Positions 9,921-35,115 of a stretch of 64,000 bases of DNA are shown here, in pieces. The stretch is from Patescibacteria group bacterium (GTDB taxonomy: Bacteria; Patescibacteriota; Minisyncoccia; Phycocordibacterales; PALSA-1337). Where the stretch lies: contig JBBTRA010000001.1 in the NCBI GenBank assembly GCA_038065415.1, positions 7,894 to 71,893 on the forward strand. Direction: 5' to 3'. A program made the translations under genes and the position numbers. Numbering within the stretch: position 1 is the first letter of the stretch; each line of letters begins with the position of its first letter. The notes beneath the pieces were generated by a model. It was not told the DNA's origin, did not search any database, and saw nothing but the letters and a program-made list of their open reading frames with translations.

Positions 9921-9928
9921 GTATATTC

Positions 9929-10764
9929 TTATTTTAACGCCTCTCTCGCCTGCTTGATCTCCTCTTCTGTCCCTGGCGGCTTCCCGTGCCACTCGAACAT
10001 GCGCTCGAATGCAGGCACACCCTTGGAGGCAATCGTATTAGCAATAATCACTGACGGACGATCGAAGACTGCACGAGCCTCACCGAACGCACGATCGATA
10101 TCGCGGAAATTGTGCCCATCGATTTCCACCACATGCCAGTTGAAGGCGCGCCATTTGTCACCCAATGGATTGAGCGGCATGATGTCCTCGGTGAAGCCGT
10201 CGATCTGAATATTGTTGCGATCGACAATGACCGTGAGATTCTGGAGCTTCTCCTTGCCTGCCAACATGATACCCTCCCAGTTGTTTCCTTCATCGAGCTC
10301 GCCATCGCCGGTAACGCAATAGAACTGCTTGCCAGAAGTGCGACCATTGTCGATCCTATCTGCGATAGCCATACCAACAGTTTGTGAAATACCCGATCCG
10401 AGTGGGCCAGAAGAAGTTTCCAACATCGGTAGCCATTCACGGTGTGGATGTCCCTGAAGGCGCGTACCAAACTTGCGGAGCGTCTTCAACTCTTCGACAG
10501 GAAAATATCCTGCGTGCGCCATAGTGGCATATAGGACGGGACAGATGTGACCACTCGAGAGCACAAAGCGATCACGATATTCCCAAGAAGGATTCTTGGG
10601 ATCATGCTTGAGCGCATGGAAATAGAGATAGGTGAAGATGTCAGCCATGTCGAGAGGACCAGCTGTGTGGCCAGACTTTGCTTCAATGAGCATCTCGATG
10701 ATCGAACGACGAATCTCCTTCGCTTTGGTCTCGAGAAGTTTGACTTTTTCTTCGGTGAGGGGCA
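9929..10764 (-). CDS. tkt: Transketolase, N-terminal subunit (thiamine-diphosphate-binding)
   Basis: Contains GHTAGPLDMADIF, SSGHICPVLYA and GDGELDEGNNWEG (the ThDP-binding GDG motif). The likely start is MPLTEEK at 10764; the ORF-track start at 10900 is the alternative. Confidence 0.85.
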
Positions 10765-10965
10765 TTTGTCCCAGTATAGCATTTTCTATAGCCTGATTTG
10801 CAGCGTTCTGTGTACAAAAAAGCGACGCATTGTGGCGTCGCTGTGAACTATTTTCGATCATTGAGAACGATTCTTGGGATCCATCTTGCTGAACCACCAC
10901 GCTGCTCGTACAGGCCTAGTTGCTGGACGTCTCACAAAAGGCGGCCTTGGAGGAAACAACGAGAG

Positions 10966-11265
10966 CTACCCTTGACCTTGCACTGGCTTCATGGGATCAG
11001 GCTTCGGTGCACTCGGAGGAACCGCGACTGGTCCGTGTTTTTTGACATGTAGTCCCACTTCGATCGGATCAGGGTGCTGGCGATGAACCGCATCCTTACA
11101 TCCGCATCGTTGCCCTCCCATGAGAACGCACTGATCGTGCCGTCCTGCCACACAGGCTGGGCACTTAGTCGGAGAATCAACTGGCTTGGCGAGAGGCGAC
11201 AATGGCGGATCGCCACGTCTCTTGCTCCACTTCATTTTTTTCTTCATTCTAGACGCATTGTACAC
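10966..11265 (-). CDS. Small Cys-rich hypothetical protein inside the pentose-phosphate operon; it may be spurious
   Basis: 99-aa ORF (probably shorter, starting at MKKK...). It contains CPAC...C...CGCKD in a locally high-GC stretch. Confidence 0.3.
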   Translation of the reverse strand: MYNASRMKKKMKWSKRRGDPPLSPLAKPVDSPTKCPACVAGRHDQCVLMGGQRCGCKDAVHRQHPDPIEVGLHVKKHGPVAVPPSAPKPDPMKPVQGQG

Positions 11266-11304
11266 CTAAAATCATGTAGTGTCAATGCTCCTGTGCCTAC
11301 CTAC

Positions 11305-11979
11305 TTACCTTCCGATCGCCTTGAACTGTTGGAGTGCCTCAAGATAGTTATCTGCGCCAAATATCTTGGAGCCAACAACGAGACGGGTAGCGCCGGCATC
11401 GTAGAGCTGCTGCGCATTATCGAGCGAGACTCCCCCGTCTATTGAGATTGGGAGCTCAGGATATGCTGCGCGTGCTTCTTTGATACGATCGATCACTTTC
11501 GCATCAAATTCTTGTCCCTGAAATCCTACATGATCAATACCCATGAGTTGGATCGACTGGATCTTTTCCTTGAATGGCTCGAGAGCTGAGATAGGAGTCT
11601 CGATACCGAGCGCCAGAGCAACCTCGACGCGACCAGAGAGGTTGTCGACAGCTGCCATGAGGTCACCTTTTGCTTCGATGTGTATGATGATCCTATTTGC
11701 CCCCGCGCTCACCCACTCGTCTACGATCTGCTCCGGATGATTGACCATGAGGTCTATCTCAAAGTTGAGCTTCTCCCAGCCAGGAAGCCCTTCCTCTTCC
11801 TTGAGAATCTTGCCGAACGCATCGTCGTCCTTGCGGTAGGGCCAGGTAGGATTTGGCGTGAATTGTCCGTCGCAGACATCTATCTGCACCGTCTTCACAA
11901 AATCCTTGACGAGGGATATCTTCTCCTCGACTTCAGCGAAGTCCATGGGGAGTATAGCGGGGATGATCTCTGTTTTCAT
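11305..11979 (-). CDS. rpe: Ribulose-phosphate 3-epimerase
   Basis: Starts MKTEIIPAILPMDFAEVEEKI..VDVCDGQF and has an Rpe-like C-terminus. Confidence 0.85.
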   Translation of the reverse strand: MKTEIIPAILPMDFAEVEEKISLVKDFVKTVQIDVCDGQFTPNPTWPYRKDDDAFGKILKEEEGLPGWEKLNFEIDLMVNHPEQIVDEWVSAGANRIIIHIEAKGDLMAAVDNLSGRVEVALALGIETPISALEPFKEKIQSIQLMGIDHVGFQGQEFDAKVIDRIKEARAAYPELPISIDGGVSLDNAQQLYDAGATRLVVGSKIFGADNYLEALQQFKAIGR

Positions 11980-21509: not shown

Positions 21510-22511
21510 TCAGACGGAAACTGTGCGTTTTTTGTGCATGTTTCCGTTGCCCAATCCTGTCTTGTCCTCATGTTCTGTCAGAGTTGAGAACGAGTTTGGA
21601 TGCGTCAGATCGAAATCCCTGACATGCCGCCGATGATCAGGCTTCCAGCCGGCACCTTCATTGATGTCCCGAACCATGGCAGCAAATGCCGGCTCACCTT
21701 TTGCCTTCATAGGGAGTACTTCCCGCGAGAGCGGAATGTCTCGAACAATCTTGGATCCGCGTTGAATCGGTTTTCCAAAGTTGTCTACATCTCCCCGGTC
21801 ATCGGTGTAATACTGAGACAGAAGAACAATCCGTGAACCCAGAATCACCGCTTCTGCGATGTCATGAGTTACGAACACTACCGTCATCTTCTGTTTTTCC
21901 CAGAGCTCGAGCATGAAGAGCTGTACGCGTTCACGCGTAGATGCATCGAGCGCTCCGAATGGTTCGTCCATGAAGACGATGCCCGGCGAAGTGATGAGTG
22001 TCTGAGCGATAGCAACCCGTTGTTGCTGGCCCCCAGAGAGCTGGTACGGCATCTTGTCGGCGTGCTGAGCGAGATCCACCATCCGCAAATACTCCATGGC
22101 TTCTGCCTTGAGCTGTTTGTGGTGGGTAAACCGGTGGAACATCGAGTGTTTGAACTCGAGTCCGATCATCACGTTCTGCAAAACACTCAGGTGAGGGTAT
22201 AGCGGATATTTCTGAGGCACGAGACCTCGGGTCGTATCGGGAAGTTGGATGGGTGCGCCGTTGATAAGCGCTTTCCCTTCCCCCTCCTGATCCACTCCAA
22301 GCTCGTATCCGAGATCTGCACCGAGGCAGATACGGAACAGTGTCGATTTACCACACCCCGATGGGCCAAGAAGTACGACGAATTCTCCAGGGGAGACCTT
22401 CAGATCGACATTCTCCAACACCGTGGTGAGCAGACCTGTTTTCGGATTAGGGAATCTTCGGTAGAGATTCTCCAGTAGGATGTGATACTGCGGATGTTGC
22501 ATTGTCTTCAT
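21510..22511 (-). CDS. ABC transporter ATP-binding protein (NitT/TauT, SsuB-like) with a C-terminal extension of about 70 aa
   Basis: Walker A (GPSGCGKST), signature (LSGGQQQRVAIAQ) and Walker B (VFMDEPFGALD). At 333 aa it is longer than the typical 250-270 aa. Confidence 0.85.
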   Translation of the reverse strand: MKTMQHPQYHILLENLYRRFPNPKTGLLTTVLENVDLKVSPGEFVVLLGPSGCGKSTLFRICLGADLGYELGVDQEGEGKALINGAPIQLPDTTRGLVPQKYPLYPHLSVLQNVMIGLEFKHSMFHRFTHHKQLKAEAMEYLRMVDLAQHADKMPYQLSGGQQQRVAIAQTLITSPGIVFMDEPFGALDASTRERVQLFMLELWEKQKMTVVFVTHDIAEAVILGSRIVLLSQYYTDDRGDVDNFGKPIQRGSKIVRDIPLSREVLPMKAKGEPAFAAMVRDINEGAGWKPDHRRHVRDFDLTHPNSFSTLTEHEDKTGLGNGNMHKKRTVSV

Positions 22512-23360
22512 TCAGCTTTTCTCCTGTTTTCCGTGCCATGAGAAGCCGCGTGCGAGGATCTGACCAAGAACAAAGTTCATGGCATATCCCAATACAACGA
22601 CCCAGAGCGCGTACGGTATGATGACGTCCATCGCCAAGTAGCGACGAACAAGGAATATCCGATAGCCGATTCCGGAAGAAGCCGCAAGGGCCTCCGCAAG
22701 AATCAGTGAATACCAGGCGATGCCCAAGCTGGTCCGCAGAATCTCGATGAGATGCGGTAGAGCCTGCGGCAACACAATCCGATACACGATCTCCAGCTGG
22801 CTGGCGCCAAGTGTAAAGGACCGGATGATTTGTGACCCAGCAATCTTCGAGACTGATGTGTACATCGCTAATGTCATGGCCGGAGCCATGGATATGACGA
22901 TGAGCACAATCTTCGAAACCTCCTCGACACCGAACACAATAAAGAGTACGGGGAGAAGGACGGGCGGAGGGATCATGTTCCAGAAGCGGAGGAAGTTCAG
23001 TAGCAATGCATTCATACCCTCGAAGAGAGCGACATTCATGCCGATCATCAATGCGATAGTACAGGCGATCGTTGCGCCAATGAACAATCTTCGCAGACTG
23101 ACGAACGTATCATTCCAAAAAATGACCTTACCGGTTTTAACATCGGCTTCAAAGGCCACCTTCTTGAATGACGTGAACATTTTCGTTGGCGTGGGCATGA
23201 GCTTCTCATCAGGATTCTCGCGATTACGAGCCGAGGAGAAGAACAGATATGCTGCAACAAGAATGATGAAGAGTACCAGGCTGAGCATGAGACTCAGTGC
23301 GTACGATGGTTTTGCGTGCATCCCCCAGAAGCGAGGGACTCTTATTTTTTGAGCGTTCAT
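22512..23360 (-). CDS. ABC transporter permease (NitT/TauT, SsuC-like)
   Basis: 282 aa with six TM helices. Its stop abuts the ATPase gene. Confidence 0.8.
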   Translation of the reverse strand: MNAQKIRVPRFWGMHAKPSYALSLMLSLVLFIILVAAYLFFSSARNRENPDEKLMPTPTKMFTSFKKVAFEADVKTGKVIFWNDTFVSLRRLFIGATIACTIALMIGMNVALFEGMNALLLNFLRFWNMIPPPVLLPVLFIVFGVEEVSKIVLIVISMAPAMTLAMYTSVSKIAGSQIIRSFTLGASQLEIVYRIVLPQALPHLIEILRTSLGIAWYSLILAEALAASSGIGYRIFLVRRYLAMDVIIPYALWVVVLGYAMNFVLGQILARGFSWHGKQEKS

Positions 23361-23481
23361 ATGTCATTTTCAAGCTGTCTCCCGCGTGATTGCGGGTTTG
23401 TGTTCTGATGTGTATATTACACATATTTATGGAATTGTCAAGTGTTTGCAGTGCATTCACCAACTACGCCCCGCAAGGTAT

Positions 23482-23511
23482 AAAAAAGCCCCGATACTTG
23501 CGTATCGGGGC
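23482..23511 (-). terminator. Intrinsic terminator after the SsuA-like gene
   Basis: Minus strand: GCCCCGATA...TATCGGGGC hairpin followed by TTTTTT. Confidence 0.65.
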
Positions 23512-23531
23512 TGGAATCAGAAGGGCGGAGC

Positions 23532-24611
23532 TTAGAGCTTCCCTGCCGCAGCTTCTTCCATGTACTTGGTGTTATACCGGAGCTTGATGTTGCGATTGCT
23601 ACCGAGGACTGATTTGTCTGGGAATTCGATCCCGACGTAGTCCTTGGAACTGGCGCCACTGAAGAGTCCTCGATCGAAACAGAATACCCGGACATGGTCC
23701 AAGATCTGCTTCATCTTCGCATCCTTCGTGAACTCGACCGCTTTCGCCGGTTCGTTGAACATGAAGGTGGTCTTCAACTGAGCTTCGAACTCCGCGCGCG
23801 TGCAGCCCTGGCTCTTGGCCATGACTTCGAGTGCGTTGTCCGTTTCCTTGCCAGAACCATACATGATCTTCATGACCTCGTACCAGGTCGCCGCCAGCGC
23901 TTTCTTCACGCCTTCGGGAGCATCGGTACGAACCACCAGCAAATCCTGGATTTCTCCGGGGATCTGACTGGAGTTGAAGACTTCTTTGGCATTCTTCACT
24001 TGCTTGACCGTCATGAGAGGAGGATTCCACGTGACACACGTCGCATTATCCGGACCGGCCGTGAAGATGGTCGCGACATCCGAGTCCGACACATTCTTGG
24101 TGGTCACGGATGTAATGGGCATTGCCGGCTTCTGCAGATCGAACGCGCGGTACAGCAAGTAATGCGACACCGAGTTCTCCATAAGAGCGATCTCGCGCCC
24201 CTTGAGGTCTGCCACCGTCTTTGCATTCTTCGCCACGATTCCATCATTGCCGTTGGAGTAATCCCCAACGATGAGGACGGTCGTGTCGATACCGCCAACG
24301 CATGGACCAGTGAGGGCGTCCATCTGAGTGATCGTTGTCGCCACCACGCTCTTGTCAGAGGTGAAGCGGTTGATCGTCGATGGATAGTCCTGCAGCGGCT
24401 CATACTTGATCTTGACCCCGTACTTCTTGGCGTTCTTGGCCAAAATGCCCGAGGAGTCGGCGTAGAACCAGGGCGCCCAGCCCGCGTAAAGCGAGTTGAC
24501 GAGGATGTATTCTTTCCCATCCTGCGCATGCACCCGGTCAGCCGAGAGTCCGATCACCATCAAGGCGATCGCGGCCAACAGTGTTACTGACAATTTCTTG
24601 ATCGTTTTCAT
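23532..24611 (-). CDS. ABC transporter substrate-binding protein (NMT1/SsuA-like)
   Basis: It has a signal peptide (MKTIKKLSVTLLAAIALMVIGLSA). The 359-aa periplasmic SBP lies upstream of the permease and ATPase on the same strand. Confidence 0.75.
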   Translation of the reverse strand: MKTIKKLSVTLLAAIALMVIGLSADRVHAQDGKEYILVNSLYAGWAPWFYADSSGILAKNAKKYGVKIKYEPLQDYPSTINRFTSDKSVVATTITQMDALTGPCVGGIDTTVLIVGDYSNGNDGIVAKNAKTVADLKGREIALMENSVSHYLLYRAFDLQKPAMPITSVTTKNVSDSDVATIFTAGPDNATCVTWNPPLMTVKQVKNAKEVFNSSQIPGEIQDLLVVRTDAPEGVKKALAATWYEVMKIMYGSGKETDNALEVMAKSQGCTRAEFEAQLKTTFMFNEPAKAVEFTKDAKMKQILDHVRVFCFDRGLFSGASSKDYVGIEFPDKSVLGSNRNIKLRYNTKYMEEAAAGKL

Positions 24612-24737
24612 TCGTGTTCTTTCGTTTCTGTAGTGTATTGTTGTGTATTTCTTGTTGTCTGCACTGCAAACTGCGAAGAGGGTCCCCGGAAAAGTCTCAC
24701 TCTCCCGGGGACGGTACTACTGAAGCGGACTCAACGA

Positions 24738-26024
24738 TCAGGCGTTCTTTGCGCCCGTGAGTTCTGCTTCTTGATCGAGTTCGAGGGTGATAGCGGCCTT
24801 GCGACCACGTTCCATGTCCCGAATCGCTTTCTCGCCCTGCTTGGTAAGGTTATCGCGTTCGCGAATCGCCGTACCCATCTGGTCGAGAGCCTTGATGCGG
24901 AATGTTTCAACGTCGTTGAGAGCCTGGATGGCGTCTTTCATCGCCTGGGCCAAGCCTTGATCCGACAGCTGCGCCGAAGCAGACAGCTTATGAATCTCGA
25001 CTCCCTGCGTCTTGAGCAGGTTCGCGTTGAATGCGATCATCCGATCGCCCACCTGGTTGACCGCCTGAACCTTGTTCAGCACGATCTTCTGTTTGGCCAA
25101 GGCCTGAGCGGCAGTGACGCCGATCAGCAGTGCCGGATAGGTGACGTTCTTGCACCGATTGACTCCACGCACCAGCTCCTTGTTGTTCTCAACAAGCACC
25201 TCGAACATGATGATGCCCTGTTGATTGACGATGAGCTGCTGCTGAAGGTCGGTAATCCGCTGGCGCAGGCGATAGATGAGCTTCGTGTTGATGTATTTGG
25301 CCTCATCGCTTTCCGGTGCCAACGCCGCCACATGCTCTGAGAGCTGCGCGTCGATCAGTTGGCACGTGATGATGAGCTTTTGCAGCTCCTTAGTAGCCGT
25401 ACGCATCTCCACTTGCTCGGATCGCAATGTGTCGATGTCACGAAGCAGCTCTTGCTTGCTCGTTTCGATCGAGTCGAACAACGATTCGATCACCTTGCCC
25501 GAAGATTCGAACTTGGTGAAGTACTTGTTGATCGGCCTGCCGACAAGAGGGAGACCCCCAAATAATCGGCCAAACCAGCCCGCTTCGAAGTTGTAGCGTG
25601 CAGGATCAATCTCATCGAACTGGACTTTGAGGTCCGTCAGTTGATCTGCGATGCCACTGCCTTCGCCACCACCGATTTGCCCCAACCGTTTGAGCGGCTG
25701 TGAGAGCAACCGGTTCGCAGTCGATGCTTTGCGGACCACATTGGTTCCAACACTCTCAACCGAGAGAGCTGCATCTTCTTCGGCTTGTGCATCCCCCACC
25801 TTGATGGCGAGGAGCTTGCCGACGAATTCGGTCGCCTGGCGTTGAAGTTCCGGATTAACGGCTTTTCCCTGCTCCGCTTGCCTCATCGCGTCCGGACCGA
25901 TCAGCCCGAGGTCGGTACTGAGCGCATCCTTCGTAACGAGTCGCGGAGGCCCTCCTGCCAATGCTGTTTTCTGTTGCGCCAGCAGGTCGGTGTTCTGGGT
26001 CGGTTGTATCTGTGTCTGTACCAT
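24738..26024 (-). CDS. TelA-like (toxic anion resistance family) coiled-coil protein
   Basis: 428 aa and almost entirely alpha-helical/coiled-coil. The length and composition fit the TelA/YaaN/KlaA family. Its neighbour resembles XpaC, the partner of the TelA-like YaaN in B. subtilis. Confidence 0.5.
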   Translation of the reverse strand: MVQTQIQPTQNTDLLAQQKTALAGGPPRLVTKDALSTDLGLIGPDAMRQAEQGKAVNPELQRQATEFVGKLLAIKVGDAQAEEDAALSVESVGTNVVRKASTANRLLSQPLKRLGQIGGGEGSGIADQLTDLKVQFDEIDPARYNFEAGWFGRLFGGLPLVGRPINKYFTKFESSGKVIESLFDSIETSKQELLRDIDTLRSEQVEMRTATKELQKLIITCQLIDAQLSEHVAALAPESDEAKYINTKLIYRLRQRITDLQQQLIVNQQGIIMFEVLVENNKELVRGVNRCKNVTYPALLIGVTAAQALAKQKIVLNKVQAVNQVGDRMIAFNANLLKTQGVEIHKLSASAQLSDQGLAQAMKDAIQALNDVETFRIKALDQMGTAIRERDNLTKQGEKAIRDMERGRKAAITLELDQEAELTGAKNA

Positions 26025-26066
26025 AGCTTACGTTTCCTTCCTTTGTTCTATTGTTTGTTGTTTGTT

Positions 26067-26945
26067 TTACGTTGTTTGAGCACCTGGTTGATCCAGCGTT
26101 ATCGCCGGTTCCCTTTTCTTGTTGGCTCGCGCGATCATCTGATTGAGCAGTTCAAGCGATTCATCCATGGACTCTTTGGGAGTGAGCGATGACGAGCGGT
26201 CTTTTATCCGCAACGCTGCCGCACCTGCCTGGTCCATGGCCGCAAGAGCCTCTTCGTTTGCCGCCAGGAGGTCTTCAACTTCCTGGGTGGACTGATCGTG
26301 TACGAGAGCCTGTTTCTTGAGAGCTGACAGGTTCCTCTCTTCCGATGCCTTGAGCTTGCGCAGTAACTGCGCCTTCTCATAAGTCTCGATTCGCGTACCA
26401 ACTTCTTCCCGATCGATGTCGTCAGTGTTCATGAGAAGCACAACGATCCGTTCGAGATTCTCGAGGCCGGCGCGGTACCCTTGTTCAGCAGTACCGACGA
26501 AACGGCTATAGGTAAGCTCGTTCTCTGAGAGAACGCGGCGAAACACTTCGACGAGATTTTCAAATTTCTCGGCGAGCTGCCTCACTTGGAGCTGCCCTTG
26601 CTTGCATTTGAGCTTTTTGAGATCACTTGCAAGCTGAGCCGATTTCTCTTCTTTGATGCGTTCGAATTCCTCGTGAAGCTGCGCGAAATGCTTGCGCATA
26701 TACGCATCACCTCCCCGGAAGAACCTCACGCTCCAATTGAGGCCGGCGATAGCAACGCCGGCGATAGCAGCTACTGCAGCTCCGGAGCCTGACGCAAAAA
26801 GCGCCAAGCCCGTAGCGGCAACGCCGCCAACAGCAAGCGGGATGAGGGTTAGTGGATGCTGGATGGTTTCAGACAATGCGGCCCGTCGGGCGGCCGCTTC
26901 GCTGAAATCCAGCTTATTAGGGCCGTCCTGTGGGGACGTATTCAT
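26067..26945 (-). CDS. XpaC-like membrane protein
   Basis: 292 aa. The N-terminal region has Gly/Ala-rich TM helices (LTLIPLAVGGVAATGLALFASGSGAAVAAIAGVAIAGLNW), followed by a cytoplasmic coiled-coil. It sits between the AAA+ and TelA-like genes. Confidence 0.4.
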   Translation of the reverse strand: MNTSPQDGPNKLDFSEAAARRAALSETIQHPLTLIPLAVGGVAATGLALFASGSGAAVAAIAGVAIAGLNWSVRFFRGGDAYMRKHFAQLHEEFERIKEEKSAQLASDLKKLKCKQGQLQVRQLAEKFENLVEVFRRVLSENELTYSRFVGTAEQGYRAGLENLERIVVLLMNTDDIDREEVGTRIETYEKAQLLRKLKASEERNLSALKKQALVHDQSTQEVEDLLAANEEALAAMDQAGAAALRIKDRSSSLTPKESMDESLELLNQMIARANKKREPAITLDQPGAQTT

Positions 26946-27093
26946 AGTTTCCTTTCTTTTTGACAGTTAATATGTGTATTTCAAGGTCCGATAAGACTGT
27001 CAACTATCCTACACAAATATAAGGATTTGTCAAGTATACTGTGATATTAAAAAACCGCATCTCCCTTCTGGGAAATGCGGTTGTGAACTACTC

Positions 27094-28770
27094 TTACCGT
27101 ATCTGAATGAGCTTGGTGACACCACGGATACGATCTCCGAAACTCTGAGTGAAATCACCGAGAGCTTCACGATGGTCCGAAGCGAAGCTTTGCTGGTACA
27201 TACTGTCCACGGCAGCGATAATGTCTACTGTTCCAATACCGCTGACCTGCCCGTCAGGTAAGCTAGAGGTACGATCGCGTAGTATAGCCAAACGCTTCAC
27301 TTCTTTCACGATCGCCGGCACCATTGCGCCACTTACAATATCAGAAAGACGGAAGTACACTGTCTCCATTTCCTTACCCGTGTCGGCTACCCGATCGATC
27401 TGGAAGATGTTCCTTTTTTCAGAAAACACCTCATTCACGAGCAAGTCAGCGAGCATGTCCAGGTTCGAATCTTTGGCAATAGGGATACCCTTCATGTTCT
27501 TCACGAAGATCTCGCGAACAGCCGGACGATCCGGACGTTTGATTTCGACCTGTGCATCGATGCGACCAGGACGTATCACCGCTGAATCAAGGATGCCCGG
27601 CTTATTCGTCGCCAAAATGACAATCGCACCTGATTCTCGGACCCCATCCATCTGCGAGAGGAATGCAGGAACGATCGAGCGCAGCACATCACTGCTGATG
27701 CCTGAATCTCGCTTGGCCAGAATCGCTTCTGCCTCATCAATCATAATGACCGGTCGGATGCCCCACTTCCTGTAGAACTTCCGCGCGCGGGCAAAAATGT
27801 GACGAATCGTCCCTTCTGCGGCACCGACATACTTGTCGAGAATCTCCGGACCGGAGATCAAGATGAATCCTTGCGAGATTGGAGCACCTTTTGCCTTACA
27901 CAAAGCAGCCATCGAACTGTAGACCGCTTTGCCAAGCATCGTCTTGCTACAACCTGGCGGACCCCAAAGGAGAAATCCATTGGGAGCCTTCATGCGATAC
28001 GCGGCGTGCGTCTTGGGGTACATTTCATGCATCTCAAGTGCTTCCCTGAAGCGGCTCTTGGCATCCTCTTGTCCGCACACATCATCCCAGGTCACCAAAG
28101 TGTCTTCGGCAACCGCGAATGAATCATCATCCAATCCATAGTTCTCGAGAATCACCGTGCCGCTCGCATCGAGCACTACCCGGCCATTGGCCTCGAGCTT
28201 ACCTCCAAATTTCCCCGAGAACACCGTACGACGGTGACCTTGGAAATCAACTTCAACAAATCCTGCGTCGATGATGCGGTAGATAAAAGCGATATTACCT
28301 GAAGGTACCGCTTTCTCGACCGCAACGACTTTGGCAGACTTGGGATCAATCTTGACCACATCTCCTGCCTCTAGTTTGAAGCCGGTGACTTGGATCTCGA
28401 CCGTCTGACCACCATAAACGATGATAGCGTAGGTACGCTTCTCAGCTTCGGCAAATTCGAGATCGCACACACCTCCTTCTATCTCAGGATCTCCGATTCG
28501 ATACCGATTGGTGAAGCGCTCTTCCGGAGTTGCTGCGGGGAACCGTACATAGGCCCAGCCCGGTTCTTCCGGTTTGAGCAGAACGATTTCTCCGATACCA
28601 TTAGTTCTCGAGTCCAGTCCGAAGAACTTGCTTCCTGTAGCAATCCGAACGAGGGTCGATTTTTTGAAACTCTCTGGCCCCTGAATAGGTGACCGCTCGA
28701 TGAGCCGATGAACCGTGGCGTGTACCAACGGATATGAGGCGCTTGCCTCTTCCTGCGTGAGTTGGATCAT
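27094..28770 (-). CDS. ARC/Mpa-family (proteasome-associated-ATPase-like) AAA+ ATPase
   Basis: The N-terminal ~270 aa form two OB-fold-like segments. Then come Walker A (LWGPPGCSKTMLGKAV), a long post-Walker-A insertion (GPEILDKYVG...IRHIFARAR) and Walker B (VIMIDEAEAI). The block SGISSDVLRSIVPAFLSQMDGV...RPGRIDAQVEIKRPD follows. This tracks ARC/Mpa segment by segment, but there is no N-terminal coiled-coil and no C-terminal GQYL. Confidence 0.75.
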   Translation of the reverse strand: MIQLTQEEASASYPLVHATVHRLIERSPIQGPESFKKSTLVRIATGSKFFGLDSRTNGIGEIVLLKPEEPGWAYVRFPAATPEERFTNRYRIGDPEIEGGVCDLEFAEAEKRTYAIIVYGGQTVEIQVTGFKLEAGDVVKIDPKSAKVVAVEKAVPSGNIAFIYRIIDAGFVEVDFQGHRRTVFSGKFGGKLEANGRVVLDASGTVILENYGLDDDSFAVAEDTLVTWDDVCGQEDAKSRFREALEMHEMYPKTHAAYRMKAPNGFLLWGPPGCSKTMLGKAVYSSMAALCKAKGAPISQGFILISGPEILDKYVGAAEGTIRHIFARARKFYRKWGIRPVIMIDEAEAILAKRDSGISSDVLRSIVPAFLSQMDGVRESGAIVILATNKPGILDSAVIRPGRIDAQVEIKRPDRPAVREIFVKNMKGIPIAKDSNLDMLADLLVNEVFSEKRNIFQIDRVADTGKEMETVYFRLSDIVSGAMVPAIVKEVKRLAILRDRTSSLPDGQVSGIGTVDIIAAVDSMYQQSFASDHREALGDFTQSFGDRIRGVTKLIQIR

Positions 28771-28910
28771 ACTATGTTGTACCTTTCTTTGCTGTGTGGT
28801 TTGTATGTTGTAAAAGACCGCTCTACGGTCCTAAAATCTATTTTGTTTCTAGCATATTTTATAATATTTGTCAATTTATCTCATCTTTGTGTTGGGTGTG
28901 TATTAGACCA

Positions 28911-28940
28911 AAAATAAAAAACCGCCTGAATTCAGGCGGG
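28911..28940 (-). terminator. Intrinsic terminator after the pilin gene
   Basis: Minus strand: CCGCCTGAATTCAGGCGG hairpin followed by TTTTTTATTTTT. Confidence 0.7.
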
Positions 28941-28965
28941 TGGAGTGGTAAAAAAGTTCAATTGA

Positions 28966-29337
28966 TCACTGAAGCTTCTCAGGTTTCTTGTGGAAGATGG
29001 CGGTGTGGCCTTTCGTAGCGCCATACCTCGATTCTCCATTCCCAAACTGCTCGACGTCGGATACGATGGTCACAAGCTCAAGATTGGGATTCCCTTCGAT
29101 GAAGAGCACAATAGCCTTCCTAAACTCATCTCCCACAAAGGGAAAATGATAGACATTCTGGCCGCAGTGCCGCGGGTAGAGCCGTTCTGCTTCTTGTGCC
29201 GTGGTCGGAGGAACCGCTTTCTGACGATTCTTAATCTTATAAGCCACAGGCAGAATCATAGCGAACAAGATGCCTATGATTGCAAGAACGATGATGAGTT
29301 CGATGAGCGTGAACGCTTTCGTATTTCTATTTTTCAT
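28966..29337 (-). CDS. Type IV pilin / pseudopilin (prepilin-type N-terminal methylation domain)
   Basis: Starts MKNRNTKAFTLIELIIVLAIIGILFAMILP, a class III signal with the conserved Glu5. Confidence 0.85.
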   Translation of the reverse strand: MKNRNTKAFTLIELIIVLAIIGILFAMILPVAYKIKNRQKAVPPTTAQEAERLYPRHCGQNVYHFPFVGDEFRKAIVLFIEGNPNLELVTIVSDVEQFGNGESRYGATKGHTAIFHKKPEKLQ

Positions 29338-29528
29338 GGAGCCTTTCTTTCAATAACAAGGGTTACGGACCTTCGCTTGAAAAGTCTTCTGGAAAGAGAT
29401 TGACATACTCAATCAGAGCTGTCAATGATACACAGTTGACATTTTATTGTATGTGTATTATTTTATTCATAGTAAAACTGTGTGCTCGTGCATACAAGTC
29501 CACATTGAAAAAATAGTGAGAATCCCCT

Positions 29529-30011
29529 ATGAACACAACCTCAACAGTCCTCCCTGAAAGAATCCTTAGTATCACCCTCGGCAGCTGGGATCCCCACGGA
29601 CCTGAAGCGCAAGGTTTCAGGATAAGCCCTCAAGCAATTGCTGCCCTCAAACATTGTGACTGCACACTGACAAAAGAACGATCTCGGATCGACATTGGCC
29701 TTTATTCAGATCAATCCTTCGGATCTGATGTGCCACTCTCGCGCCGCGAGATCTATGCTCGCGCTCGCGCGGCAGGCCTCGCCTTGTCCCCTGCAGAAGT
29801 CGGTCCTTGCCTGCGTCAAAGCTATGTGGATCAACCCAATGGAGAGCGCATACTCGTGGCCATGGACCCGCTCGCACATGCCCGCGAACCGCTCTATGTG
29901 TTCGCAGTCGGATGCGATGAACGCGGGGCCTATCTTGATGTGGACGACGAGAATCCATTACCTTCTCTCTCCGACAAAGTCCGGCGCCTCTGGGCATTCG
30001 TCGTGTCGTAA
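29529..30011 (+). CDS. Hypothetical protein
   Basis: 160-aa high-GC ORF, followed by an intrinsic terminator at 30028-30056. Confidence 0.4.
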   Translation: MNTTSTVLPERILSITLGSWDPHGPEAQGFRISPQAIAALKHCDCTLTKERSRIDIGLYSDQSFGSDVPLSRREIYARARAAGLALSPAEVGPCLRQSYVDQPNGERILVAMDPLAHAREPLYVFAVGCDERGAYLDVDDENPLPSLSDKVRRLWAFVVS

Positions 30012-30027
30012 AATTGCTGTTCTCTAT

Positions 30028-30056
30028 CCGCTGTGACTCATACAGCGGATTTTTTG
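30028..30056 (+). terminator. Intrinsic terminator
   Basis: CCGCTGT-GACTCAT-ACAGCGG hairpin followed by ATTTTTTG. Confidence 0.65.
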
Positions 30057-30114
30057 TATTCAAAATAATAAAAAGCCGCAATATTTGTCATTACGGCTGG
30101 TTCCTACCCACACT

Positions 30115-30564
30115 TCACCTGTCCCTAAACACTGCGAAAACGCCATTCGAGATATTGAGGTTCTCTGGGAAATACTTGAGATCAATCATATGATCTCCCG
30201 TATACCAGACTGATGAATGATTCTCCTGTGCGGAAAACACTATGACAGGAACAAGATTCGTATGCTCGCGGAGATATGCGAATACAGGCTCGAACCGATC
30301 ATCATCGCTGGCCTTGAAGAAATACAAGCCTCGCCCCAAAGGAATGATCGAGGCATTCTTACTGAGCTCTGTCGTCAGTAATATGCGCATACTGACCATG
30401 TTGGGGACCACACCATCTCCGACGCGATTCGGCGAAGCGTTGGATGACGCATGAGCGACAGCGTTGGTCATCGGTGGAGGTGGTGGTTCGCCCGTTTGAA
30501 CATCACAGCCATTGCAGGCAAGAATGAGGGGGATTGCGATGATGCACACTACAAGTGATTTCAT
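30115..30564 (-). CDS. Lipoprotein, hypothetical
   Basis: Signal peptide with lipobox (LILAC). 149 aa. Confidence 0.5.
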   Translation of the reverse strand: MKSLVVCIIAIPLILACNGCDVQTGEPPPPPMTNAVAHASSNASPNRVGDGVVPNMVSMRILLTTELSKNASIIPLGRGLYFFKASDDDRFEPVFAYLREHTNLVPVIVFSAQENHSSVWYTGDHMIDLKYFPENLNISNGVFAVFRDR

Positions 30565-30725
30565 GCTATTGATCTCTTTCAGTTATATTGGTTTTTTAGT
30601 CCTGTGTTCAGAAATACCTGCAAATCACTCTATAATACTATATAGAAATGTCAAGAGCGACCATGAATTTCTGTGTATAAAAATCCCCTGTTCTTGCAAA
30701 CAGGGGTTGAAGCTATATCGAAGCT

Positions 30726-32303
30726 TCAGAACGGATCCAACAACAGGACAATCTCCACGCGCGGCAGACGATAGCCATAACTGCGATCGGACTCCCCAGG
30801 AACGCGTGGCAACGGCTTTGTTCCGCCAAGACCTTCCGCCCTCAACCGCTGAGCATCGATGCCATGAGTCACCTCAAGGTATCGCGCAACCGATTGTGCA
30901 CGAGCTAGAGAGATCTCCTTATTGGCATCTTGGTCACCACGCACATCGCTGTGACCACGTACACCAATTCTGAAGTTCGGGTAGCGTTTCATCTTCCCCG
31001 CTATCAGGTCGATGGCTTCCTTGCCCTCAAGGGTGATCTCATCAGTCCCACTCTGGAACTTGATCGGCTCAACCTTGAGCGTGCCGACGTCCTGCATGCG
31101 TGACCATTGTTCATCAGTGAGCGGATTGAATGTACCACTGTGACCCTGAAGACCCTTGCTTTCCTCTCCTCCAACATTGGCAAATCCAGACTTTACCGCA
31201 GTCCCATAGAGATCTGCGATGAAGTCGCTCTTGGTGAGCATGAGTGGATTGCTGTCAGGCAGTGGATTGCGATCGAAGTCTCCAACTTGACGGAGCACCG
31301 AAACGGCCGCGTCGATTGTGTCTGCCAGCACCCGCTCAGGCCTTGATCCTGATACTTGAGTACCTGCAACACCAAACCATGTACGAGCATTGTCTGTGAG
31401 ATTGACCCACGACACGCCCTTGACCATGCTTGCCGCAGAGACCTCGTCAACCTTGAGTTCAGCGGCGATATCTCGTTCCAGCTCCTTGGGTTCGTTCAGG
31501 TAATGTTTGAGCACCCTGAAATACGATTGCAGAAGCAGTGAGACAATCTCGGGACGACTATTCATGGTTTGCCGATTGGCCAGAAGCACATCGACGATCA
31601 CATGATCGGTCTTTTCGCTTCCAAGCAATTTGACTACCCCCTTGATCTCGAGCGCCTTCGAAACCTGCGGCTGCCACAGTGTGGCAACTGAGACTTCGCG
31701 ACGTTTGAGTTTTCCGAGAGCATCAGCAGAATCCTTGGAATGAATGAGGAGACCGGAGCTTTTGGAACGGAAGAGTGGGATATCGAAGTCGACACCCGCC
31801 ACCTTGATAAGGTGGTGTGACGGCGAATCCGGAGTGAACGCAACCTTCTTGGTGACATTATTCCGGAGCGCATCGAGCGAACCGATTTCGTCGGCGTACG
31901 CCACGATTGCATCTCCACCCTTCGATTCATCAATGACGGAAACGATATATCCCGGATAACCCTCTGGAGCACCATTCAGCACAAAGGCATCTACGGTGCA
32001 CACAGCCAGATTGACCGAGTCTTCCGCCAGAGCTTTCATGCGAGCTTTATAATCAGCATTATCAGGGACACACTCGACGAGGTATCCCTCATTGAGCATC
32101 TCCTTCTTGAGCCGCTGAGAACGGAGTGGGAAATACCCCACCCAGTCATCCACAGCGATGATGATCTTGCCCTTAGTTGCCTTCGCATCAGACATGCGTT
32201 TCTGCACATGCTTTGCAATGAACGGCGCGGCGACTTTCCATCCGAAGAGGCCCAGCATCGAGACGATGACGAGGCCGATGAGAACTTTTGTCCAAACTTT
32301 CAT
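30726..32303 (-). CDS. Membrane-anchored protein with a substrate-binding-protein-like domain fused to a C-terminal OmpA/MotB-like peptidoglycan-binding domain
   Basis: N-terminal TM segment (MKVWTKVLIGLVIVSMLGLFGW), an SBP-like middle region and a C-terminal OmpA-C-like block (RIGVRGHSDVRGDQDANKEISLARAQSVARYL). Confidence 0.6.
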   Translation of the reverse strand: MKVWTKVLIGLVIVSMLGLFGWKVAAPFIAKHVQKRMSDAKATKGKIIIAVDDWVGYFPLRSQRLKKEMLNEGYLVECVPDNADYKARMKALAEDSVNLAVCTVDAFVLNGAPEGYPGYIVSVIDESKGGDAIVAYADEIGSLDALRNNVTKKVAFTPDSPSHHLIKVAGVDFDIPLFRSKSSGLLIHSKDSADALGKLKRREVSVATLWQPQVSKALEIKGVVKLLGSEKTDHVIVDVLLANRQTMNSRPEIVSLLLQSYFRVLKHYLNEPKELERDIAAELKVDEVSAASMVKGVSWVNLTDNARTWFGVAGTQVSGSRPERVLADTIDAAVSVLRQVGDFDRNPLPDSNPLMLTKSDFIADLYGTAVKSGFANVGGEESKGLQGHSGTFNPLTDEQWSRMQDVGTLKVEPIKFQSGTDEITLEGKEAIDLIAGKMKRYPNFRIGVRGHSDVRGDQDANKEISLARAQSVARYLEVTHGIDAQRLRAEGLGGTKPLPRVPGESDRSYGYRLPRVEIVLLLDPF

Positions 32304-32467
32304 TGGGTATCCTTGGTTTTTGTTCTGTTGTTGTGTTGTAAGTGTACGTATGAAACTGTGAATGACCATAACATAATCAAACGATAAAGTCAATAGACTG
32401 GCAGTTCATATAAAAAACCCCTCTGCGTTGCCGCAAAGGGGTTGTGAACATGGTGCGAATGCCTGCA

Positions 32468-33178
32468 TCACTTGCTGAATGTGTCGGACTCGGCCAGCAC
32501 ATCCTGAAGGCCTTTTTTGACGGCCTCGGGCGATTGGGCGTCAGCATAGTGAGTCTTCCCTGGCTGATTCAGGCTATGACCCGATCCGATACAGAAGCCA
32601 ATCGTGTGGATGATAACGGGACTACGGTTGATCTGCTCGATCAGGCCATTATCGCCGTCATTCGCTTCTCCGTCAGTGACAACAACCAGGTGGTACTCGC
32701 CATAGTTGAGCTGTCGGGCCATCTGGACCTTCAAGCTCTCGAACGCGATCCCCATCGATTGATACAGCGGCGTACCGCTATTAGCGTAGATGTTATCGAT
32801 CGCCTGATCGAACATCGCCCGGTCACCATTTGACAAGGCAACCCTTTCGGAGATGCCGTTGCTGTCGAAGACGAGCAGGCCAAGGTTATCCTCGGGCTTC
32901 AGGTTCCGCGCAAATTCCTTCACCGCCTGCTTGGCGACGTCGATCTTGCGCGAATTCCCGGCACACTTGCTTTCTTGCATGCTACCCGACCCGTCGAAAA
33001 CCACATAGTAGTTCCGTCGAGTGAGCTTGCTGTCCTGAACGGGCGCCGATGCTTGTTGCGGCACCTCCTCAGACTGAATCTGAGACTGCTGCACCGAGCC
33101 TCCCCCTTGGGAAGGGTCGCATCCTGCAACCCAACAAAGGAGTGCCGCCGCCACGAAAGGCATGATGATTTTATTCAT
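32468..33178 (-). CDS. VWA-domain lipoprotein
   Basis: Lipobox (LLCWVAGC). The VWA domain carries a MIDAS motif (DGSGSM...T...DGEAND). Confidence 0.75.
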   Translation of the reverse strand: MNKIIMPFVAAALLCWVAGCDPSQGGGSVQQSQIQSEEVPQQASAPVQDSKLTRRNYYVVFDGSGSMQESKCAGNSRKIDVAKQAVKEFARNLKPEDNLGLLVFDSNGISERVALSNGDRAMFDQAIDNIYANSGTPLYQSMGIAFESLKVQMARQLNYGEYHLVVVTDGEANDGDNGLIEQINRSPVIIHTIGFCIGSGHSLNQPGKTHYADAQSPEAVKKGLQDVLAESDTFSK

Positions 33179-33202
33179 ATGGTATTCCTTTTGGGGCGAT
33201 GG

Positions 33203-34897
33203 TTACTTGACCGGCACGAACACGTCGGATTCTGCTTCCACGTTGGCGATACGGAAGACAACGCGCATATTGGCACGCCATTCCGCTTCATTTTCAGAAG
33301 CGAGAGGCTCGCCTTTGTACACGCCGGCTTTCTCGACACCTTTCTTCGGCTTCATAGCGCCATGCCCGACCGTAGTCACCTGACTCTCATCGAGACTTAC
33401 GCCTTTGCTCTTGGAGTATCCAACGAGCCCGTCACGTACACTGTTCGCGCGATTGAGCGACAGATTGATACCGGACTGCTTGCGCTGTCTGGCTTCAACC
33501 ATGTTGCCACTCTTGAGCGAGGTCAGGTAATTGTTCGGGTCGCTATGACCTTCGACCGTGAGGATCGCTCCCCGATAGGTCGAAGCGAGCTCAATGACCT
33601 TATCAAACTGATCCTTGTATTGAGCAGGATCGAAGTCCACGAGCTTGGGTTCGAATACCACCTCGAAGGTGAAGACGCTTTCCAGCGCATCCCCCTTCTT
33701 GGCGACCAATGCGGCAACCGCCGCCGGATCGAAGCGAGAACTTTCTGCTTCAACCACGGTATTCCGCAAACCCGACTTGATTTTCTCATAGTCGAATCCT
33801 GCGGACGCGAGCGTTGATTTGCTGGCGAGCAGCCCGAGCTTGATGAGCGCCTCCTGGTTCTCAGAAGACACCTTCTCGAAGCGACGGGGGTAACTGGCAT
33901 CAGTGAAGAACTTGACGTTCCCCTGGTATCCGACGAATGTGCAGTCTGCGAGGAGGCCTTTGGCATCATCGATCGCGTCCTTGCTGTCCAGGAAAACCTG
34001 GGCGGCGGAGGCCATGAACTTCTGATCTTTCGAGGCGTTCGCAAGCTGTTCTTCTGCAACCATGAGCGCATTGACGAACGCTTCGACTTCTGTCGGATGA
34101 TCACGGAGATAATCCGCGCGCACCGCATAGACGTCGGCGATCACCCGGTCCGCAGTCTTGGTAGACATGAGGTACCGCGCGCCTTTGACTGTCTTCTCTG
34201 CACCGCTGCCGATCTTGCCGGGTCCACCGGTAAGCTGCATTGCGTCTGGCGATATAACGAAGGCCGCATCAATCGAGGTGTCGGACCGGAAGGCTTCAGC
34301 GGGACTGTTGTCAGTACCGGTGATATCCTTCACATACTTGATCTTGACCTGACCGATATCCACGCCGGCATCCTTGAGCGTTTGCACAAGGAAGTCGACG
34401 TGAGGGCCATAGGCTTGAACCACAATCGTCTTACCCTTGAGATCAGAGGCCTCCTTGATAGTAGGCTTGACCACGAGGACATCGCCGCCGGACGACCAGG
34501 TCATCTGATAGATGACGATCGGACGGACGCGAGGATCCTTGAGGGCAGATAGCGCCTGATTGATCATACCGACCGTACCACGAAGGTATGGTTGGCCTGA
34601 CATATAGTCTTTGATCTGATCCGGGAAGACATCCTTGCGGATAATCTTGAAGTTCAGCTTCTGAGCGTTGAACAGACTTCCCGGTTGAGTATTCACTGCG
34701 CCACCATTGGCGTGCAGTGTAGCGATATCGCCGCCCCAGGTAATGACCGGGAGCTCGATGGCGCCAGACTTGACCGGACCGACTGTGCCCGTAACGAGCT
34801 GATCGAGCGGTTTGTTCTCAATGTATTGCGCCGCACTTGCGGTGAGTCCAATCATTGCCGTTATGAGCATCGCGAAGGATGCAATCATCTTCTTCAT
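33203..34897 (-). CDS. Secreted NMT1/SsuA-like substrate-binding domain fused to a C-terminal OmpA-like domain
   Basis: Signal peptide (MKKMIASFAMLITAMIGLTASAA), an SBP-like region of about 400 aa, and an OmpA-C-like C-terminus (ILTVEGHSDPNN...LSLNRANSVRDGL). Confidence 0.6.
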   Translation of the reverse strand: MKKMIASFAMLITAMIGLTASAAQYIENKPLDQLVTGTVGPVKSGAIELPVITWGGDIATLHANGGAVNTQPGSLFNAQKLNFKIIRKDVFPDQIKDYMSGQPYLRGTVGMINQALSALKDPRVRPIVIYQMTWSSGGDVLVVKPTIKEASDLKGKTIVVQAYGPHVDFLVQTLKDAGVDIGQVKIKYVKDITGTDNSPAEAFRSDTSIDAAFVISPDAMQLTGGPGKIGSGAEKTVKGARYLMSTKTADRVIADVYAVRADYLRDHPTEVEAFVNALMVAEEQLANASKDQKFMASAAQVFLDSKDAIDDAKGLLADCTFVGYQGNVKFFTDASYPRRFEKVSSENQEALIKLGLLASKSTLASAGFDYEKIKSGLRNTVVEAESSRFDPAAVAALVAKKGDALESVFTFEVVFEPKLVDFDPAQYKDQFDKVIELASTYRGAILTVEGHSDPNNYLTSLKSGNMVEARQRKQSGINLSLNRANSVRDGLVGYSKSKGVSLDESQVTTVGHGAMKPKKGVEKAGVYKGEPLASENEAEWRANMRVVFRIANVEAESDVFVPVK

Positions 34898-35115
34898 AGT
34901 ACTGTTGTGCCTTTCTTGGTTTCGTTGTTTGTTTGCCAGTGTTCTGACGAAATAGCTGAGCACAATGCAATTATTTGCACCATGTTGTCAATGAACACCT
35001 TTGTACGTGAAATTAGCAGAATAATCGAGTTTTGTCAAGTACCACACAGCACATACTCTCACCTGACACCAAACCTTGACAAAACCTCATATTCGGGCTA
35101 ATTTTCAAGCAGATC

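Follow-up and report, generated by a model that had tools for sequence, protein, structure and literature searches.

To our knowledge, some 30 years of links between TelA proteins and resistance to tellurite, nisin, daptomycin, colicin and phages have yielded no mechanism. The ter/tel loci are historically tied to phage exclusion, and the study that defined the sigma-W regulon of Bacillus subtilis reportedly mentions xpaC and yaaN (telA) of that species. The XpaC-TelA pairs, represented by B. subtilis xpaC-yaaN, Listeria lmo1966-lmo1967 and Enterococcus faecium xpaC-telA, combine TelA with a two-transmembrane helical protein encoded just upstream of it. In Listeria, bacteriocin induces the pair, and disrupting telA raises the sensitivity to nisin (PMC12791056). 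In E. faecium, the effects of XpaC on daptomycin binding and on phospholipid domains require an intact TelA (PMC6811118). Sub-membrane structures formed by TelA and vWA proteins have also been described or proposed (PMC7824862). Here we analyse a 64,000-nucleotide stretch of the genome of a Patescibacteria group bacterium (contig JBBTRA010000001.1; the whole stretch is called the window), in which a TelA gene and a gene for a two-transmembrane protein, named X here, lie beside the gene of an AAA+ ATPase resembling the proteasomal unfoldase Mpa/ARC.

The initial annotation had presented these three genes as a tight operon headed by the ATPase. Their minus-strand open reading frames (ORFs), of 558, 292 and 428 aa, lie exactly where it placed them. 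As a unit the trio proved incomplete, being the middle of a conserved nine-gene cluster that also encodes fusions of substrate-binding protein (SBP) and OmpA domains, a vWA lipoprotein and a NitT/TauT-type importer. Nor is the ATPase the head of the system: it is an optional add-on, absent from most clusters. The order of the cluster is O586, vWA, O555, (ATPase), X, TelA, urea-type SBP, permease and ABC ATPase (Table 1), where O586 and O555 are the two SBP/OmpA proteins. Both the TelA-plus-membrane-partner module and the Mpa-like unfoldase are known kinds of element; what appears new is their widespread, strictly conserved combination, which is apparently undescribed. In our preferred reading, for which we see the case as evenly balanced, the eight-gene core would be a trans-envelope module with TelA, bound to X, as its cytoplasmic face, and the ATPase, where present, would remodel or turn over TelA or X without a proteasome. 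Our confidence stands above that overall level for the anatomy and much below it for the client.

The ATPase and Mpa/ARC

Among described proteins, Mpa/ARC (TIGR03689; PDB 5kwa, 5kzf and 7px9) gives the best sequence-profile and fold match to the ATPase. Pfam places the 558-aa protein only in the generic AAA family (PF00004, 2.1e-27), and its best NCBIfam match is TIGR03689 (proteasome ATPase, pup_AAA), with 233.3 bits over residues 123-528, compared with 151 for CDC48, 132 for PAN and 116 for FtsH. This score is under half of the TIGR03689 equivalog cutoff of 504.75; the ATPase is closest to Mpa/ARC, yet it is no orthologue. In searches of PDB sequences, scored per aligned stretch, the single sequence reaches 148.8 bits with Mpa versus 117 with the D2 domain of VAT, and the corresponding figures for a 28-sequence family profile are 226.9 bits for a single stretch of Mpa 5kwa and 159.7 for the highest-scoring VAT domain. 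Cdc48/VAT proteins top the PDB sequence ranking because both their AAA domains score. The profile alignment to 5kwa covers profile positions 124-518, and therefore the similarity reaches past the AAA module on both sides. With residues 1-225 and 442-558 searched alone against the PDB, phmmer returned no significant Mpa match. The segment-by-segment likeness to Mpa proposed in the initial annotation thus holds at the level of profile and fold, and not for the terminal segments taken by themselves, while its placement of the ATPase nearer to ARC/Mpa than to FtsH or Cdc48 is borne out by the NCBIfam scores, the PDB profile and Foldseek.

The AlphaFold2 (AF2) model of the ATPase (predicted local distance difference test score 85.7) has about 200 residues of beta structure, then the AAA module, a beta hairpin and helices. 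What appear to be three small beta domains (residues 16-212), considered here together as one region, precede an AAA module at about 235-450 and a post-AAA beta hairpin with helices. The model, Foldseek and the profile alignment agree on beta domains, apparently of OB type, ahead of the AAA module and on an overall Mpa-like fold. All of the best 30 Foldseek matches in the PDB are Mpa chains (E 4.5e-30 to 8e-24, about 475 aligned columns), with 22-26% identity in the structural alignments, and 26S Rpt subunits rank after them at about 1e-20. Shared with Mpa/ARC are the PPGC(S/G)KT Walker A, the post-Walker-A insertion, the K(Y/F)VG pore loop and the RPGR(I/L)D arginine-finger block, and the alignment reaches the OB-type beta domains and the post-AAA beta-hairpin/helical region. 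Every motif previously quoted for the protein is present: PPGCSKT, GPEILDKYVG, SGISSDV..IVPAFLSQMDGV, RPGRIDAQVEIKRPD and VYFRLSDIVSGAMV. Moreover, K276 (Walker A), E346 (Walker B), N389 (sensor 1), R400/R403 (arginine fingers) and the pore-loop residues K313/G316 are invariant in 28 homologues.

Unlike Mpa/ARC, the ATPase carries an extra, subfamily-divergent beta domain in place of the coiled coil, lacks GQYL, and is found in the candidate phyla radiation (CPR) and Verrucomicrobia within a TelA/ABC/OmpA/vWA cluster that has no pup, dop, pafA or prcAB nearby. The absences reported initially were all recovered. There is no coiled coil, as the AF2 model is all-beta over residues 16-212 and has no helix ahead of residue 235. 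The protein ends in ..TKLIQIR and 25 family members end in ..K(L/Q)xQxx-type tails, with no GQYL or HbYX-type proteasome-docking tail in the ATPase or its family C-termini. Pfam detected no proteasome, Pup or Pup-ligase domain in 45 window ORFs, a scan that covered ORFs down to about 120 aa and so stopped above the size of Pup, and no pup, dop/pafA or prcA/prcB domain in the flanking genes of related loci, the search there covering flanks and not whole genomes. As far as the 45 scanned ORFs go, we also reject the idea that the protein is a genuine Mpa/ARC orthologue whose proteasome in the window had been overlooked. Thus, the ATPase is an Mpa/ARC-like unfoldase that has none of the three links of Mpa to the Pup-proteasome system, namely the coiled coil, the GQYL tail and genomic linkage. 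The family is rare, a search of 5.8 billion proteins giving 278 clusters at E<=1e-30, and its relatives are named 'AAA family ATPase' or 'proteasome-associated ATPase' in databases.

One could still imagine the ATPase as a protease activator that feeds an unlinked proteasome, ClpP, FtsH-like or other chambered protease, in which TelA or X would be degraded. We find this quite improbable given the ..KLxQxx C-termini with no GQYL/HbYX tail and the lack of proteasome, Pup and Pup-ligase domains in the scanned window ORFs and related-locus flanks, even though the nearest relatives are proteasomal ATPases, Mpa first and Rpt subunits next. A hint at tag-dependent targeting comes from CPR relatives outside TelA clusters, which adjoin a protein of 59-74 aa and in one case also Prok-JAB and ThiF genes; however, neither this small protein nor the DUF1360 protein found near it has a homologue in the window.

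These four CPR ATPases (L016, 8001-10257; L026, 9001-11327; L019, 8001-10154; L027, 9001-11346) are each followed by the gene for a mutually similar protein of 59-74 aa that starts MLQD..KTK.P, continues as an acidic helix and ends in CTC/CGC. A DUF1360 membrane protein is encoded next in three of the four loci, and L016 also has a second AAA gene together with the Prok-JAB and ThiF genes. As candidates for Pup, the small proteins were rejected, with no Pfam Pup match even at E<=10.

TelA, X and the conserved cluster

The identification of the 428-aa protein as TelA was correct: it matches PF05816 at 2.4e-53 and 181.8 bits, against a gathering threshold of 30, its residues 86-401 covering model positions 13-330 of 332 (318 positions). 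X has two Gly/Ala-rich transmembrane helices (at about 31-50 and 56-78), followed by a cytoplasmic helical bundle according to the alignment and the AF2 model, and it adjoins TelA in about 70 loci. The description of X as an XpaC-like membrane protein stands for its architecture and context, which comprise two N-terminal transmembrane helices, a helical domain and a gene just upstream of telA. It fails as a family call, and X was rejected as a member of the XpaC family, since Pfam, PF10112 included, gave no match for the window protein (E<=0.1) or, at E<=0.01, for any of 78 family members and the Vibrio and Sungbacteria homologues. The likeness of X to XpaC is one of analogy, not membership. 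X belongs instead to a large unannotated two-transmembrane helical family, for which an exhaustive profile search gave 1078 representative clusters at E<=1e-3, 264 of them at E<=1e-30. A word-indexed search with X found only 47 relatives, all 'hypothetical'; the broad alignment has no conserved stretch, and a second word-indexed search with it gained two unnamed hypothetical proteins.

X-TelA and the XpaC-TelA pairs share the TelA family PF05816 and an expected role at the membrane, and the literature supports, by analogy, X-TelA as a counterpart of this envelope-stress pair. In contrast to the described pairs, X and its 78 relatives have no XpaC Pfam match, the pair lies within an eight- or nine-gene cluster, and an AAA+ ATPase is added in some lineages. 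In other TelA loci, from Methanosphaera, Arthrobacter, Sphaerotilus and Bacillus, we found non-XpaC partners (zinc-ribbon, DUF3974 and hypothetical proteins), and the companions of TelA elsewhere appear interchangeable. On a Sphaerotilus plasmid (L022, 7794-12510), TelA is accompanied by an unannotated 380-aa protein and a 551-aa vWA protein; in Bacillus sp. N5-665 (L109, 3674-5695) by a DUF3974 protein with an N-terminal hydrophobic segment; and on a Methanosphaera plasmid (L024, 4744-7122) by a 410-aa protein with an N-terminal zinc ribbon.

The cluster itself is conserved far beyond the window. A 55%-identical ATPase in a Verrucomicrobiae metagenome-assembled genome (MAG) has the same neighbours well past the trio. 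Scanning species-representative genomes with the ATPase alignment gave nine true relatives, from Verrucomicrobiales, Limisphaerales and Verrucomicrobiia MAGs and from MAGs labelled Candidatus Paceibacterota, and the nine-gene cluster is colinear in 9/9 of the genome loci recovered in this way, with the ATPase alone. In Candidatus Sungbacteria, where the ATPase is 42% identical, the same nine genes are rearranged and the ATPase is inverted between vWA and O555. A metagenome scan with the O555 alignment gave 338 relatives, and in the best 80 of these loci the eight-gene core is nearly invariant in content and order, the importer genes being kept as strictly as TelA. The family-specific ATPase is present in 21 of the 80, and since the sample is biased to relatives of ATPase-bearing queries, the true fraction is lower. 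Three placements were distinguished. In type a, that of the window (14 loci), the ATPase gene stands between O555 and X in the same orientation; in type b (6 loci) it stands between vWA and O555 on the opposite strand; and in type c (1 locus) it is upstream of O586. In about 53 loci O555 is directly followed by X with no ATPase, and 6 were too short to judge. In a crude neighbour-joining tree, type a ATPases form one clade and types b and c another, beside the CPR ATPases without TelA linkage.

The ATPase is therefore a recurrent, repeatedly repositioned and dispensable accessory of the cluster. This pattern argues strongly, through guilt by association, that ATPase and cluster are functionally linked, and it argues just as strongly that the core works in the absence of the ATPase. 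It could be objected that the ATPase is an unrelated neighbour whose adjacency is meaningless, as its gene in the window has a separate promoter and terminator and most clusters lack it. We regard this as barely credible, because a rare ATPase family recurs inside one specific cluster in two phyla, at three insertion points and in both orientations, because a search with the ATPase alone led to the full cluster in 9/9 genome loci, and because identities of 38-58% exclude a single recent clone. With two phyla and three placements, the association of the ATPase with the TelA cluster is clearly non-random.

The core also occurs on Vibrio plasmids. Plasmid pIFO15642 of Vibrio penaeicida has the other eight genes together and no ATPase; RefSeq names their products 'nitrate ABC transporter SBP', 'vWA', 'phosphate ABC transporter substrate-binding/OmpA family protein', 'hypothetical', 'toxic anion resistance protein' and 'putative urea ABC transporter SBP', followed by the permease and the ABC ATPase. 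Five more Vibrio plasmids were matched by TelA. A 545-kb contig classed as viral by IMG/VR (L108, UViG 3300037484_000435) carries the full eight-gene core, again with no ATPase, at 10001-11479 and flanks.

Identities to the window vary from gene to gene. L014 is 66-73% identical in flanking genes, 37% in TelA and 48% in the ATPase; L028 is 66% identical in O555, 70% in TelA and 47% in the SBP; and the verrucomicrobial loci (L006-L010), compared with window positions 21510-34963, are 61-68% identical in TelA and 35-50% in the flanks. Such mosaic identities imply that parts of the cluster have been exchanged, and the sequence comparison suggests that recombination or an exchange of cassettes took place within the cluster, between bacteria that carry the labels of different phyla. 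Transfer of the ATPase and TelA as one cassette finds no support, as the ATPase tree and the TelA types disagree.

Of the other described systems, the Ter/TelA systems (the ter operon with the vWA proteins TerY/TerF, and the kilA genes klaA-telA-telB of RK2) likewise combine TelA with a vWA protein and membrane proteins, and for them, too, a complex linked to the membrane has been envisaged (PMC7824862); the Sphaerotilus plasmid has a TelA-vWA pair as well. They differ in that the vWA protein of the cluster is a secreted lipoprotein, not a cytoplasmic protein, and in that its partners are SBP/OmpA fusions and an ABC importer. The scanned window ORFs yielded no TerB, TerC, TerD or TerZ domain, and the called genes of related loci no TerB/TerC/TerD Pfam domain. 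MoxR-vWA or Bat aerotolerance-type operons similarly bring an AAA+ ATPase and a vWA protein together in clusters linked to the envelope, although the ATPase described here is of the classical clade and Mpa-like, and it is optional whereas the vWA gene is in all loci. The vWA protein is extracytoplasmic and can therefore be no direct client of the cytoplasmic ATPase. Our search of the full-text literature, whose coverage does not extend to the Ter/TelA survey of Anantharaman et al. 2012, returned no link between an ARC-type ATPase and TelA and no eight-gene cluster of this kind, in line with the initial statement that no described system was known to couple such an unfoldase to a TelA pair.

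It is tempting to see in the cluster a conflict system directed at phages or xenobiotics, in which the ATPase would be a sensor or effector module, as was historically suggested for ter/tel loci, and the initial annotation had raised an anti-phage module. TelA and vWA proteins have been proposed to block the entry of phages or xenobiotics (PMC7824862), the core is on six Vibrio plasmids and one IMG/VR contig, and the mosaic identities hint at cassette exchange. Nevertheless, the locus sits among housekeeping genes, its strict eight-gene colinearity and nutrient-type ABC importer are atypical of defence islands, and no nuclease, protease or toxin effector is present. PADLOC, run on the locus proteins, gave no support either: PADLOC-DB v2 has no defence family for the TelA, X, vWA, SBP and OmpA proteins, and no system-consistent match was obtained, the only ones being generic, with IetA/TRIP13 (AAA core), mad3/mad8 (ABC ATPase) and ZorB/MotB (OmpA domain), plus a non-significant LeoBC match for X (E 0.0045). 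A known defence system was rejected on these grounds, and we judge a conflict function to be distinctly unlikely.

A possible trans-envelope mechanism

Returning to the trans-envelope reading, the two wall-anchored SBP-like/OmpA proteins and the vWA lipoprotein would lie outside the membrane, where they, together with the importer, might handle some small ligand. X would sit in the membrane as an anchor or regulator, paired with cytoplasmic TelA as a sub-membrane helical effector, and the two could be the counterpart of the Firmicute XpaC-TelA envelope-stress pair. Only some lineages (Patescibacteria/CPR and Verrucomicrobia), that of the window among them, have gained a ninth gene, which encodes a hexameric AAA+ unfoldase of the Mpa/ARC type whose ATPase and pore-loop residues are intact. 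This unfoldase may thread or pull a cytoplasmic component, thereby disassembling or resetting a TelA/X assembly or passing the component to another protease. The family assignments, the fold, the conserved cluster, the optional and repeated placement of the ATPase and the tail correlation described below are observations, whereas we infer complex formation, the identity of the client and a physiological trigger.

The best candidate handles would be a beta-strand-like motif at the C-terminus of TelA (..PAITL[DE]..) and a TelA-like tail on the X proteins of type a loci. In all loci examined (more than 60), TelA ends in ME(R/Q)GN..(P)A(I/V)(T/S)L(D/E)x(D/E), the window version being MERG.KAAITLELD (C-terminus at 24738-24830). 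X of the window ends in a TelA-like ..PAITLDQ tail (26067-26125), and in 19/19 complete type a loci X has a tail of 8-22 residues with a TelA-like phi-x-phi motif (PAITLEQD, LTLSV, TLEL). In contrast, X in ATPase-less and type b/c loci stops soon past its last helix in a short A(R/H/Q)(D/E)Y ending, the median length beyond the last conserved arginine being 6 residues. The N-terminal domain of type a ATPases, of about 100 residues, does not align with type b/c proteins. As a hypothesis only, this pattern in the sequences suggests that the type a N-domain reads the C-terminal strand motif on X and/or TelA.

The pair of genes for X and TelA is the only tightly spaced part of the trio, 42 bp apart. 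The 148-bp gap between the ATPase and X holds an intrinsic terminator with a 13-bp stem and a TTGACA-16-TAGGAT site, and because this terminator and promoter-like site part the ATPase from X-TelA, the trio is not the single tight operon first proposed. Strong intrinsic-terminator-like hairpins are also seen in the window sequence 3' of vWA, O555, the SBP and the ABC ATPase.

Several points weigh against a role of the ATPase on TelA or X. Since it has its own terminator, the ATPase of the window is transcribed apart from X-TelA. It is not always beside these genes, as types b and c adjoin vWA/O555 or O586, and most loci have no ATPase at all; most systems therefore work without it and it cannot be central to the core mechanism. 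The correlation between X tail and N-domain is phylogenetically non-independent, because it is confined to one clade. ATPase and TelA patterns are incongruent, L028 and L014 having sister ATPases and different TelA types. Furthermore, X cannot be linked to XpaC by sequence, and a direct ATPase-TelA or ATPase-X contact is something we infer.

Some of these points would suit an ATPase that belongs to the cluster and has another client, such as the ABC ATP-binding subunit, the permease or the cytoplasmic N-terminus of O555, and that would act in regulation or quality control of transport. The type b and c positions beside vWA/O555 or O586 are in its favour, as are the roughly 80-aa C-terminal extension of the ABC ATPase and the strict conservation of the importer genes. 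However, the ATPase gene most often lies directly upstream of X-TelA, X is alone in having a terminal feature that tracks ATPase placement, and no importer feature was seen to vary with ATPase presence, a comparison that was not made in detail. This alternative seems to us possible and on balance unlikely.

A bolder form of the trans-envelope reading is that of a machine in which damage to the wall or a ligand would be sensed by the SBP/OmpA and vWA proteins and signalled by X through the membrane to a TelA assembly beneath it. In CPR and Verrucomicrobia, the Mpa-derived unfoldase would then read the ..PAITL[DE].. motif common to TelA and X and disassemble or recycle the assembly. We offer it as a speculation that is itself rather unlikely to be right. 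Vps4, a hexameric AAA+ ATPase, reads a short C-terminal motif and disassembles a polymer. The likeness to Vps4-ESCRT-III, and to PspA/LiaH with LiaI or PspBC, is one of functional analogy, in the recruitment of a helical cytoplasmic protein by a small membrane partner; the cluster ATPase is in the proteasomal and not the meiotic/Vps4 clade, and TelA would be an analogue, not a homologue, of ESCRT-III/PspA. If the machine were real, Vps4/ESCRT-III would have a bacterial analogue based on a proteasomal ATPase, and the TelA family would gain its first defined biochemical activity. The fixed eight-gene context names the likely physical partners of TelA on both sides of the membrane, and the Vibrio plasmid versions offer cultivable hosts. 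Proteasomal-type unfoldases would also appear to have been recruited outside Actinobacteria for a proteasome-free job, and such a dedicated piece of proteostasis is unusual in the small genomes of CPR bacteria.

Features of the window

Table 1. Genes and signals of the cluster in the window
Feature	Coordinates	Strand	Evidence
O586, SBP-like (NMT1/SsuA type) with weak OmpA-like C-terminal domain, secreted; called gene 564 aa, start near 34897; first in conserved cluster	33203..34963	-	Pfam, NCBIfam
vWA-domain protein, signal peptide and lipobox (..WVAGC), DGSGS motif of metal-ion-dependent adhesion site (MIDAS) type, extracytoplasmic	32468..33178	-	Pfam VWA 1.2e-11
O555, N-terminal membrane anchor, SBP-like domain and OmpA_C peptidoglycan-binding domain; called gene 525 aa, start at 32303	30726..32393	-	Pfam OmpA 4e-16
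Three-small-gene insertion, window-specific, outside conserved cluster	28966..30564	mixed	missing from all other loci
ARC/Mpa-like AAA+ ATPase, 558 aa	27094..28770	-	Pfam, NCBIfam, AF2/Foldseek, PDB profile
Intrinsic-terminator-like hairpin 3' of ATPase (27082-27053), then sigma-70-like promoter upstream of X (27033-27006)	27006..27082	-	sequence
X, 292 aa, two-transmembrane helical protein	26067..26945	-	alignment, AF2
TelA-family protein, 428 aa, downstream of X	24738..26024	-	PF05816
Periplasmic SBP, 359 aa, 'putative urea ABC transporter' equivalog	23532..24611	-	TIGR03427
ABC importer permease (TauC/SsuC/NrtB-like)	22512..23360	-	Pfam BPD_transp_1 3.3e-14; NCBIfam TauC 6.9e-29
ABC importer ATP-binding subunit, last cluster gene	21510..22511	-	Pfam ABC_tran 1.7e-26

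The SBP/OmpA protein O586 matches NMT1 (22.8 bits) and OmpA (23.1 bits) in Pfam and SsuA_fam (1.1e-10) in NCBIfam, and its homologue is colinear and present at every related locus, the Vibrio copy being annotated 'nitrate ABC transporter substrate-binding protein'. Residues 115-322 of O555 have weak NCBIfam matches to ABC_peri_uca and SsuA, and its Vibrio homologue is the 'phosphate ABC transporter substrate-binding/OmpA family protein' mentioned above. The vWA gene is kept across the cluster loci, and the hairpin 3' of it is at 32443-32416. The urea-type SBP scores 372 bits with TIGR03427, above the equivalog cutoff of 333.9, a ligand call made from the sequence; no urea carboxylase gene is in the cluster. 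The permease and the ABC ATPase are of NitT/TauT type, and the terminator after the latter gene, at 21480-21453, is a strong one.

Between O555 and the ATPase, the window carries an insertion that no other cluster-bearing locus examined has at this position. It encodes a lipoprotein-like protein of 149 aa (-), a 160-aa protein (+) and a 123-aa prepilin-type N_methyl protein (-; Pfam 1.7e-08), each with its own terminator-like hairpin. About 8 kb from the cluster, at 42769-43515, the window encodes an SPFH/Band 7 (flotillin/stomatin-like) membrane-microdomain protein that was not seen linked to the TelA cluster in other loci. Transketolase is encoded within 8928-10900 as separate N-terminal (9929-10900) and C-terminal (8928-9992) genes. 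Finally, the segment 51565-54816 may be a small acquired island, as its G+C content is low (0.39 at 52-54 kb versus 0.50 for the window) and a DUF4238 protein (52689-53846) is encoded there beside an APH-family phosphotransferase.

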